5,674 nucleotides of DNA from a virus. Lineage: Duplodnaviria; Heunggongvirae; Uroviricota; Caudoviricetes. Under the pieces are notes generated by a model. It did no database searches, was not told where the DNA came from, and was given only the letters and a program-made list of their open reading frames with translations. Numbering within the stretch: the first letter of the stretch is position 1; each line of letters opens with the position of its first letter. The position numbers and the translations under genes were made by a program. Below are positions 1 to 3,907 of this stretch, piece by piece. The stretch is from the IMG/VR virus record IMGVR_UViG_2534681628_000022; one strand, written 5' to 3'.

Positions 1-525
1 TTATACAGCTTTTTTTACATCGTCTTCTCTTGCCGGGAGGTTGTGTTCCTTATTTTCATACTGAGATAAAATCTCTCTCGCTTTTTCCGGCGGTAATGCT
101 TGAAGTGTCTGTAGGGTTCTTTGTTGTTCTACAGTAACCCCCAATGCTTCTAACGCTTTATCTTTGCTAACAATTGTCGGCATAAGACCTTTAATTCCTG
201 CCACACGAATGATCTCAATAGCCGCAGCTTGCTCATCAGGCGTTAAGAAACTCATTGCATAAACTAGCCGCTCATCAACTGTATGATGGCTTGGTACATG
301 TACTGGAGGGGTATCAGAAAATGATGCTCCCTTAATAGCCCTTTGGGTTTCTTCTGGTAAGCTGTTGATGTGATATTCATAAGCCACACCTTTTCCACCA
401 TGACGTTGACGTTTTACCCAATCTTCTGCCACAGCCTTTCTGGTAATGTTAGTCGCCAACTTTGGCACACCAGGCATCCCCTCCAGCTCTTTCGCATTAA
501 ACCATTCTTTGATTTCAAAAGACAT
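1..525 (-). CDS. c: Mu/D108-type phage repressor (c), 174 aa, complete
   Basis: Minus-strand ORF with ATG at 525-523 and TAA at 3-1. The N-terminal ~65 aa are paralogous to the N-terminus of the downstream transposase (shared [20 protein letters not shown]...W..RQ..GKGV). The C-terminal tail (LPPEKAREILSQY...VKKAV) resembles the Mu c repressor C-terminus as I recall it. It is divergent from ner-A-B, as in Mu-family immunity regions. Confidence 0.85.
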   Translation of the reverse strand: MSFEIKEWFNAKELEGMPGVPKLATNITRKAVAEDWVKRQRHGGKGVAYEYHINSLPEETQRAIKGASFSDTPPVHVPSHHTVDERLVYAMSFLTPDEQAAAIEIIRVAGIKGLMPTIVSKDKALEALGVTVEQQRTLQTLQALPPEKAREILSQYENKEHNLPAREDDVKKAV

Positions 526-658
526 TGTTTAAAATCCCAATGATTTCATTAAAGTTGAAAAAATCACTTTAAATTTCAAATAATTAATCAAGATGCTGTA
601 AAATCTTTTCAAATCATCATTGATTCCAAAAAGATTTCACTGTACATTGCTCGATATG
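526..658. promoter_or_regulatory. Divergent operator / early promoter region between repressor and ner; by analogy with Mu also the transposition enhancer
   Basis: 133-bp AT-rich non-coding gap between divergent genes. GATTYCA recurs at 542-548, 622-628 and 633-639; related AAATCAY at 561-567 and 611-617. One IHF-like match AATCAAgatgCTG at 586-598 (one mismatch to WATCAANNNNTTR) follows an A/T tract. Individual operator sites cannot be assigned from sequence alone. Confidence 0.6.
620..648 (+). promoter_or_regulatory. Candidate rightward early promoter (Pe-like)
   Basis: -35 TTGATT (620-625), 17-bp spacer, -10 TACATT (643-648). This would place the transcript start just upstream of the palindrome at 659-688. 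Sequence-only prediction; the -35 overlaps one GATTYCA repeat. Confidence 0.4.
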
Positions 659-688
659 CCGTGAGCTACTTTGCAGAGTAGCTCACGG
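659..688. promoter_or_regulatory. Perfect 12-bp inverted repeat with 6-bp spacer; candidate Ner operator
   Basis: CCGTGAGCTACT (659-670), TTGCAG spacer, AGTAGCTCACGG (677-688); the arms are exact reverse complements. It sits between the predicted early promoter and the ner start codon. No T-run follows, so it is not an intrinsic terminator. Confidence 0.55.
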
Positions 689-712
689 GTGAATCTGAAA
701 GGATTACATGAA

Positions 713-934
713 ATGCATATGAATAAAAGAGCTAACCGCCAAGACTGGCATCGGGCTGACATCGTTGCTGAGTTACGAAAACGCAATATGTCACTGGCCG
801 AATTGGGAAGATCGAATCATCTTTCGTCTTCAACATTAAAAAATGCTTTAGATAAGAGATACCCAAAAGCGGAAAAAATCATTGCAGATGCATTGGGAAT
901 GACACCGCAGGATATCTGGCCATCTCGATACTAG
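713..934 (+). CDS. ner: Ner-family DNA-binding regulator, 73 aa
   Basis: ATG at 713 preceded by AGGA (699-702); stop TAG 932-934. The protein ([34 protein letters not shown]...[14 protein letters not shown]) has the Ner signature DWHRAD...IWPSRY. The ORF track starts at TTG 671, but that lies inside the palindrome and has no RBS, so I prefer 713 (719 is also possible). Confidence 0.85.
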
Positions 935-2968: not shown

Positions 2969-3907
2969 ATGAATATTTCCGATATTCGCGCAGGACTGCG
3001 CACGCTTGTAGAAAATGAAGAAACCACCTTTAAACAAATTGCTCTTGAGAGCGGACTTTCTACCGGAACTATCAGTAGTTTTATCAATGATAAGTACAAC
3101 GGGGATAACGAGCGTGTTTCACAAATGCTGCAACGCTGGCTGGAAAAATATCATGCAGTTGCAGAACTACCTGAACCGCCCCGCTTTGTGGAAACGCAGA
3201 CGGTAAAACAAATCTGGACAAGTATGCGTTTTGCCAGCCTGACTGAAAGTATTGCTGTTGTATGTGGCAATCCTGGTGTGGGCAAAACCGAAGCGGCCCG
3301 TGAATATCGCCGCACCAATAACAATGTCTGGATGATCACCATTACGCCATCCTGTGCCAGCGTTCTGGAATGCCTGACTGAACTGGCGTTTGAGCTGGGA
3401 ATGAATGACGCACCACGCCGTAAAGGGCCACTCTCCCGTGCCCTGCGACGTCGCCTTGAAGGTACACAGGGGCTGGTTATCATCGACGAAGCTGATCATC
3501 TTGGTGCCGAAGTTCTGGAAGAACTCCGCCTGTTACAGGAATCAACCCGCACTGGCCTTGTGCTGATGGGAAATCACCGGGTTTATTCAAATATGACGGG
3601 AGGTAACAGAACGGTTGAATTTGCCCGTCTGTTTTCCCGTATTGCCAAGCGCACTGCAATTAATAAAACAAAAAAAGCCGATGTAAAAGCTATTGCGGAT
3701 GCCTGGCAGATTAACGGCGAAAATGAACTGGAGTTATTACAGCAGATTGCGCAGAAACCAGGTGCGCTTCGCATTCTGAATCATTCACTTCGCCTTGCCG
3801 CCATGACGGCTCACGGTAAAGGTGAGCGTGTTAACGAAGATTATCTGCGTCAGGCTTTCCGTGAATTAGACCTGGACGTTGATATTTCAACGCTGCTGCG
3901 TAATTAA
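2969..3907 (+). CDS. B: Mu B transposition target-DNA activator (AAA+ ATPase), 312 aa
   Basis: Begins MNISDIRAGLRTLVENEETTFKQIAL, matching MuB as recalled. Walker A GNPGVGKT at 3266-3289 (lysine 106), Walker B VIIDEADHL around 3475-3500. SD ACGAGG at 2954-2959. Confidence 0.97.
   Translation: MNISDIRAGLRTLVENEETTFKQIALESGLSTGTISSFINDKYNGDNERVSQMLQRWLEKYHAVAELPEPPRFVETQTVKQIWTSMRFASLTESIAVVCGNPGVGKTEAAREYRRTNNNVWMITITPSCASVLECLTELAFELGMNDAPRRKGPLSRALRRRLEGTQGLVIIDEADHLGAEVLEELRLLQESTRTGLVLMGNHRVYSNMTGGNRTVEFARLFSRIAKRTAINKTKKADVKAIADAWQINGENELELLQQIAQKPGALRILNHSLRLAAMTAHGKGERVNEDYLRQAFRELDLDVDISTLLRN

Follow-up and report, generated by a model that had tools for sequence, protein, structure and literature searches.

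A perfect palindrome between the predicted early promoter and ner as the probable Ner operator of a D108/SfMu-type phage

The left end of a Mu-like phage and its c-ner interval

The window analysed here, a stretch of 5,674 nucleotides taken in its entirety, comes, by its sequence, from a Mu-like transposable phage with D108/SfMu-type immunity, of which it represents the left end. ORF listing and database comparisons gave the gene order c repressor, ner, A and B, which is that of D108/SfMu-type phages. Over the whole window, identity amounts to 96% with Shigella phage SfMu and 95% with D108, and the c repressor is 100% identical to that of SfMu and 90% identical to that of D108. As expected for heteroimmune relatives, phage Mu matches the window only from position 1122 on. 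The genes and the features of the c-ner interval are as follows.

1-525, minus strand: c repressor gene (PF02316, Mu DNA-binding domain), the presumed other target of Ner control
526-619, no strand: A+T-rich region of putative c-repressor operators, upstream of Pe and outside the Ner site, with candidate IHF sites
620-648, plus strand: predicted early promoter Pe (-35 TTGATT at 620-625, 17-nt spacer, -10 TACATT at 643-648)
659-688, no strand: putative Ner operator core, a 30-bp palindrome of 12/6/12 layout, equivalently 11-bp arms with an 8-bp spacer as in D108
659-670, plus strand: left half-site CCGTGAGCTACT, whose conserved core TGAGCTAC is shared with D108, SfMu, Vibrio phage martha 12B12 and the martha-like phage L176
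671-676, no strand: spacer TTGCAG, which varies among relatives
677-688, minus strand: right half-site, the reverse complement of the left arm
699-703, plus strand: predicted Shine-Dalgarno sequence AAGGA of ner, 9 nt before the ATG at 713
713-934, plus strand: ner, coding for the cognate repressor (73 residues, Pfam HTH_35)
942-2930: transposase A gene (ORF listing and database comparison)
2969-3907: transposase B gene, after which come the semi-essential early genes

Over positions 520-940, the best matches (SfMu, E. coli RM11911 and XJ34) are 99.3% identical, and no exact match to this segment was found among complete E. coli genomes or phage records, suggesting that the window derives from a slightly different SfMu-type prophage. 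This region is present in 46 of 5,426 complete E. coli genomes. We also observed a 54-nt inverted similarity (70%) between positions 460-513 on the minus strand and 942-995 on the plus strand. Its source is the homology between the N-termini of the c repressor and of transposase A, which share 60% amino acid identity over 53 residues. This homology is already known in Mu and D108, and the shared N-terminus explains the binding of both proteins to the operator/enhancer region.

The candidate Pe was ranked with a rough position weight matrix (PWM) of our own, in which 620-648 is the best plus-strand sigma-70-like site between positions 500 and 800. It scores 8/12, under the threshold of the consensus tool, which listed two A+T-rich sites at 555-604 instead. 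The two hexamers match D108 at all 12 positions, whereas the 17-nt spacer has 6 differences, and the retention of the hexamers despite the changed spacer supports a Pe function. Judging from the hexamers, transcription would start near 654-656, with the palindrome beginning approximately 4 nt later. The PWM scan revealed no convincing leftward promoter (Pc), and its weak candidates have predicted starts near 707 and 632. The exact Pe and Pc start positions in this phage are thus to be read as predicted ones.

Upstream of Pe, the segment 526-619 is 65% identical to D108, compared with >95% for its flanks, as expected for an immunity-specific region. Repeated TGATTTCAAAAGA-like motifs are found in both orientations within 526-658, together with IHF-like matches at 574-598. 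These elements presumably correspond to c-repressor operators and to an IHF site, respectively.

The palindrome and its counterparts upstream of ner

Positions 659-688 read CCGTGAGCTACT-TTGCAG-AGTAGCTCACGG. The initial annotation had described this element as an exact 12/12 inverted repeat, and a reverse-complement comparison of the arms (659-670 and 677-688) confirmed that they match at 12/12 positions on either side of a 6-nt spacer. Read inward, 14 of 15 positions are complementary, with T671/G676 as the sole mismatch. The location assigned to the repeat, between the predicted early promoter and the ner ATG, also holds, with the element downstream of the 620-648 site and separated by 24 nt from the ATG at 713. 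In the 5,674-bp window, no other repeat has perfect arms of at least 8 bp and a loop of at most 12 nt, no second copy of the 30-mer exists, and the half-site TGAGCTACT is confined to the two arms of the palindrome. An arm of at least 12 bp occurred anywhere in 0.65% of 2,000 first-order Markov shuffles of the window; a chance origin of the palindrome is rejected. The element also stands out by its base composition, with 57% G+C as against 25% in the surrounding intergenic region (526-658).

We compared the palindrome with the ner operator sequence of D108, as the initial annotation had proposed, using the genome of that phage (GQ357916). The corresponding D108 element, at positions 996-1025 and likewise 24 nt from the ner ATG, reads CCGTGAGCTAC-TTTATAGC-GTAGCTCACGG. 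Its 11-bp arms form a perfect inverted repeat on either side of an 8-bp A+T-rich spacer, and the D108 genome has exactly one such element upstream of ner. The arms of the two phages (659-669 and 678-688 in the window, 996-1006 and 1015-1025 in D108) are identical at 22/22 positions. The central 8 bp, TTTGCAGA in the window and TTTATAGC in D108, are identical at 5/8 positions, and one of the three substitutions (C to A) gives the perfect repeat arms of 12 instead of 11 bp. The D108 spacer is more A+T-rich than that of the window. The leader from the palindrome to the ner ATG differs from that of D108 at 1 of 24 positions. The window and D108 thus have in common both 11-bp arms, the 30-bp length of the element, its distance to the ATG, the Pe hexamers and a Ner protein identical at 72 of 73 residues (99%), the sole change being outside the HTH.

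The Ner operator of D108 was reportedly defined by DNase I and chemical footprinting and described as a pair of perfect inverted repeats of 11 bp, with 8 bp of A+T-rich DNA between them, located between the early promoter and ner. D108 positions 996-1025 fit this description, and no other element upstream of ner in the D108 genome does; the D108 palindrome would thus correspond to the Ner footprint.

Two variants of the element were found among close relatives. SfMu and a few E. coli prophages have the 12/6/12 variant of the window; its sequence is unchanged in SfMu, E. coli RM11911 and an IMG/VR contig (L012/L175) whose Ner protein is 100% identical. D108, five of the E. coli prophages sampled and other IMG/VR contigs have the 11/8/11 variant instead. 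The 24-nt spacing to the ner ATG is common to the window, D108, SfMu and six sampled E. coli prophages.

We also examined the ner upstream DNA of 160 loci that encode relatives of Ner, taken from IMG/VR and GTDB genomes. Vibrio phage martha 12B12, whose Ner is approximately 65% identical to that of the window, harbours TGAGCTACT-CCATGA-AGTAGCTCA 26 nt before the ner ATG. The BLAST alignment with this phage is limited to the coding region, the intergenic DNA being unalignable; both arms nevertheless share their inner 9 bp with the window, and the CCATGA spacer differs. In a martha-like phage (L176, IMG/VR UViG_2713897198_000001), positions 180-203 form a perfect 12/6/12 palindrome, TTATGAGCTACT-CCATAA-AGTAGCTCATAA. 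It has the same 9-bp core as the window, and its outer 3 bp are changed symmetrically, from CCG/CGG to TTA/TAA. The loci L022/L092, whose Ner is 79% identical, have GAGCTAC-N8-GTAGCTT, and the left arm of L022, CGAGCTAC, retains GAGCTAC alone from the core. An exact scan of IMG/VR for TGAGCTAC-N8-GTAGCTCA yielded 12 contigs, in 8 of which the site is directly upstream of ner. The core is invariant, the spacer and, in part, the outer positions are free to vary, and the motif co-occurs with ner, a pattern expected of a symmetric site recognized by a protein in a base-specific manner.

More distant Mu-like phages have other palindromes 24-45 nt upstream of ner, with AGCTA-, TAGTT- or TAAGT-like cores: TAGCTAGC-N14-GCTAGCTA, CAACTACATTT/AAATGTAGTTG, TAGTTAAATGAT-TTAC-ATCATTTAAGTA and, in Mu, TAGCTAAGT-TTTTAC-ACTTAGTTA. 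Over 34 non-redundant loci, the best inverted-repeat score upstream of ner averages 6.7, versus 5.2 in shuffles. A strong palindrome upstream of ner was rejected as a general rule, with approximately 7 of these 34 loci scoring above at least 97% of the shuffles, and Mu's own validated Ner site does not clearly beat them. These proportions indicate that perfection of the repeat is a trait of the D108/SfMu lineage rather than a requirement of the family. The TGAGCTAC core, which accompanies ner into Vibrio phages, could serve as an annotation aid for Mu-like prophages, and the AGCTA-, TAGTT- and TAAGT-like half-sites found upstream of ner across Enterobacteria and Pasteurellaceae may also help in annotating them.

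Ner, its start codon and the operator reading

The 73-residue protein encoded by 713-934 is assigned to Pfam HTH_35 (E = 1e-28), and its structural matches include Mu Ner (1NEQ/1NER, E = 1e-18). The initial annotation had placed the ner start at 713 on the grounds that a TTG start at 671 falls within the palindrome. This TTG is in frame with the ATG and does lie in the spacer. We consider the start at 713 to be correct, but this particular argument proved weak. The TTG start was rejected on other grounds: where the window has CAG (674-676), the D108 codon is an in-frame TAG, and an N-terminal extension would thus be unusable in D108, which is the strongest reason for a start at 713. The Shine-Dalgarno sequence at 699-703 is likewise suitably placed for the ATG at 713, the match to the HTH_35 profile opens at residue 11 of the 73-residue form, and a 222-nt ner CDS is annotated in GenBank/RefSeq in every relative examined.

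The initiation region of ner is itself conserved. At positions 697-712, the pattern TAAGGAT-NN-CAC-N3-ATG is found in 33 non-redundant Mu-like ner loci from Enterobacteria, Vibrio and Pasteurellaceae, in which the DNA further upstream is unalignable. Such conservation exceeds the need for a Shine-Dalgarno sequence; it could reflect an extended Ner footprint or a leftward promoter.

The palindrome at 659-688 is very probably the operator at which Ner acts, a small Cro-like HTH repressor whose gene directly follows. Sequence comparison identifies it as the already known Ner operator of D108/SfMu-type phages, in its SfMu-type spacer variant. As a D108-type operator would, it has 11-bp arms at 8-bp spacing and is situated between the predicted Pe and the ner start, next to a gene for a D108-type Ner protein. 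The designation of the element as a candidate Ner operator in the initial annotation thus gains support from the 22/22 identity of the arms with D108, from the adjacent D108-type Ner and from the association of the core with ner.

Ner is reported to be monomeric in solution and to oligomerise on DNA, and the D108 protein reportedly represses both promoters. In Mu, the start of leftward c transcription lies immediately rightward of the Ner site, in line with the GenBank features. In the phage of the window, RNA polymerase would start at Pe (predicted near 655) upon infection or induction, and Ner would be the first early product. Ner would then bind the two TGAGCTAC(T) half-sites, at approximately +4 to +34 of the early transcript, close enough to Pe to hinder open-complex formation or promoter clearance. 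The bound protein would limit further transcription of ner-A-B, a form of autoregulation. It may also stop leftward c transcription, which would have to start in or cross this interval; we infer this leftward part of the mechanism in the present phage by analogy. Shut-off of c combined with early autoregulation would lead to commitment to lytic, transpositional growth. The window carries a textbook Mu-family lysis-lysogeny switch in which the palindrome very probably marks the Ner operator, leaving the understanding of the system unchanged.

The same repeat could also fold as RNA. On the plus strand, the predicted hairpin has a stability of -27.1 kcal/mol (z = -5.8), equalled by 0 of 200 shuffles, a similar fold is predicted for the minus-strand transcript, and the hairpin would begin approximately 4 nt past the predicted Pe start. 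Such a 13-bp stem-loop, a few nucleotides from the 5' terminus of the early mRNA and perhaps also of the leftward c mRNA, might act mainly at the RNA level and independently of Ner binding, on mRNA stability or on translation of ner. Symmetric alteration of the outer 3 bp on both arms in L176 is compatible with pairing, but a symmetric protein site accounts for it equally well. Pairing alone would not require the AGCTAC/GTAGCT core to be invariant across phages with unalignable flanks, and the one-sided, uncompensated changes at outer arm positions in martha 12B12 and L022 also argue against pairing as the main constraint. Moreover, an Rfam search over 656-747 detected no family at threshold, the only match being PK-repBA, whose 17 bits (E = 0.37) fall well short of its gathering score of 45. 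We consider a mainly RNA-level role to be very unlikely. The RNA fold contains a weak second hairpin after that of the operator, at 689-709, in which GGA 701-703, part of the Shine-Dalgarno sequence, pairs with 692-696. The possibility of an intrinsic terminator was rejected, as there is no T-run, the hairpin being followed by GTGAATCTG on the plus strand and by CATATCGAG on the minus strand; no terminator-like sites were found on either strand in 480-760.

Binding of 659-688 by another regulator of the switch, namely the c repressor, the N-terminal domain of transposase A or IHF, would be conceivable, as the c-ner interval of Mu-family phages is crowded with such sites and IHF-like matches occur nearby, at 574-598. 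We nevertheless regard it as highly improbable. The palindrome is G+C-rich and devoid of the TGATTTCAAAAGA-like repeats found in the A+T-rich operator block, and no match to the IHF consensus overlaps 659-688. Furthermore, its arms are identical between D108 and SfMu-type phages, even though the c proteins differ by 10% and the operator blocks are only 65% identical, and the motif accompanies ner into a Vibrio phage. There is finally an extremely small probability that the repeat is a cruciform element sensing supercoiling at the Pe/Pc switch or a functionless chance palindrome. Negative supercoiling can drive the extrusion of a perfect 12-bp inverted repeat whose spacer is short, but nothing in our analysis specifically supports a cruciform function, and both the low chance probability per window given above and the retention of sequence-specific cores across hosts argue against chance.

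With 659-688 taken as the Ner operator, a secondary RNA role is conceivable because the element would fall in the initial ~35 nt of the early transcript and probably also near the start of the convergent c transcript. We consider it unlikely that the operator hairpin has such a second role, in mRNA stability or ner translation, and that the spacer affects the lysis-lysogeny set-point. If that were the case, the SfMu-type spacer (12/6/12 versus 11/8/11, and less A+T-rich) could alter Ner-induced bending or hairpin strength, and spacer differences could shift the lysis-lysogeny set-point between near-identical phages.

Comparison with Mu, lambda and EnrR

The Ner site of Mu is said to consist of two 12-bp sites, ANYTARCTAAGT, separated by a 6-bp spacer. 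In the Mu genome (AF083977), positions 1029-1040 and 1047-1058 fit this consensus exactly, and the GenBank features flanking 1029-1058 are labelled 'part of Ner binding region/site'. The element, AGCTAGCTAAGT-TTTTAC-ACTTAGTTAAAT, spans approximately +2 to +31 relative to the early start at 1028. The sites of Mu and of the window are thus alike in their inverted 12-6-12 layout, their position in the early transcript upstream of ner, their AGCTA-like core and their association with an HTH_35 repressor. However, the half-sites themselves differ (AGCTAGCTAAGT in Mu, CCGTGAGCTACT in the window), and the latter does not fit the Mu consensus ANYTARCTAAGT, with which it has the layout and the AGCTA core in common. 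The Mu repeat is also imperfect, with 8/9 matches in its core, and lies 43 nt rather than 24 nt from the ner ATG, and the two Ner proteins are 51% identical.

Lambda offers a functional analogue of Ner and its operator. Its Cro protein is a small early HTH repressor acting on a symmetric operator region, OR, between the divergently regulated lytic and repressor promoters, where it stops synthesis of the repressor and dampens early expression. Unlike Ner, an HTH_35 protein that is reportedly monomeric in solution, Cro belongs to the unrelated Cro/CI family of HTH proteins. Lambda has three operators, whereas a single extended one is predicted here, across which the promoters of the present phage would face each other.

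The closest solved homologue of the window Ner protein is EnrR (7F9H, E = 1e-22), which also has a palindromic DNA target. In the EnrR-DNA crystal structures (7F9H/7F9I), a palindromic duplex is bound by two monomers with the HTH in the major groove (PMC9023278), which supports symmetric recognition by the HTH_35 family, although the spacing at the window site is different. EnrR is a nucleoid-associated anti-H-NS factor that recognizes a compact CTATAG centre in A+T-rich DNA (PMC9023278), whereas the conserved cores of the window site are approximately 15 bp apart and G+C-rich.
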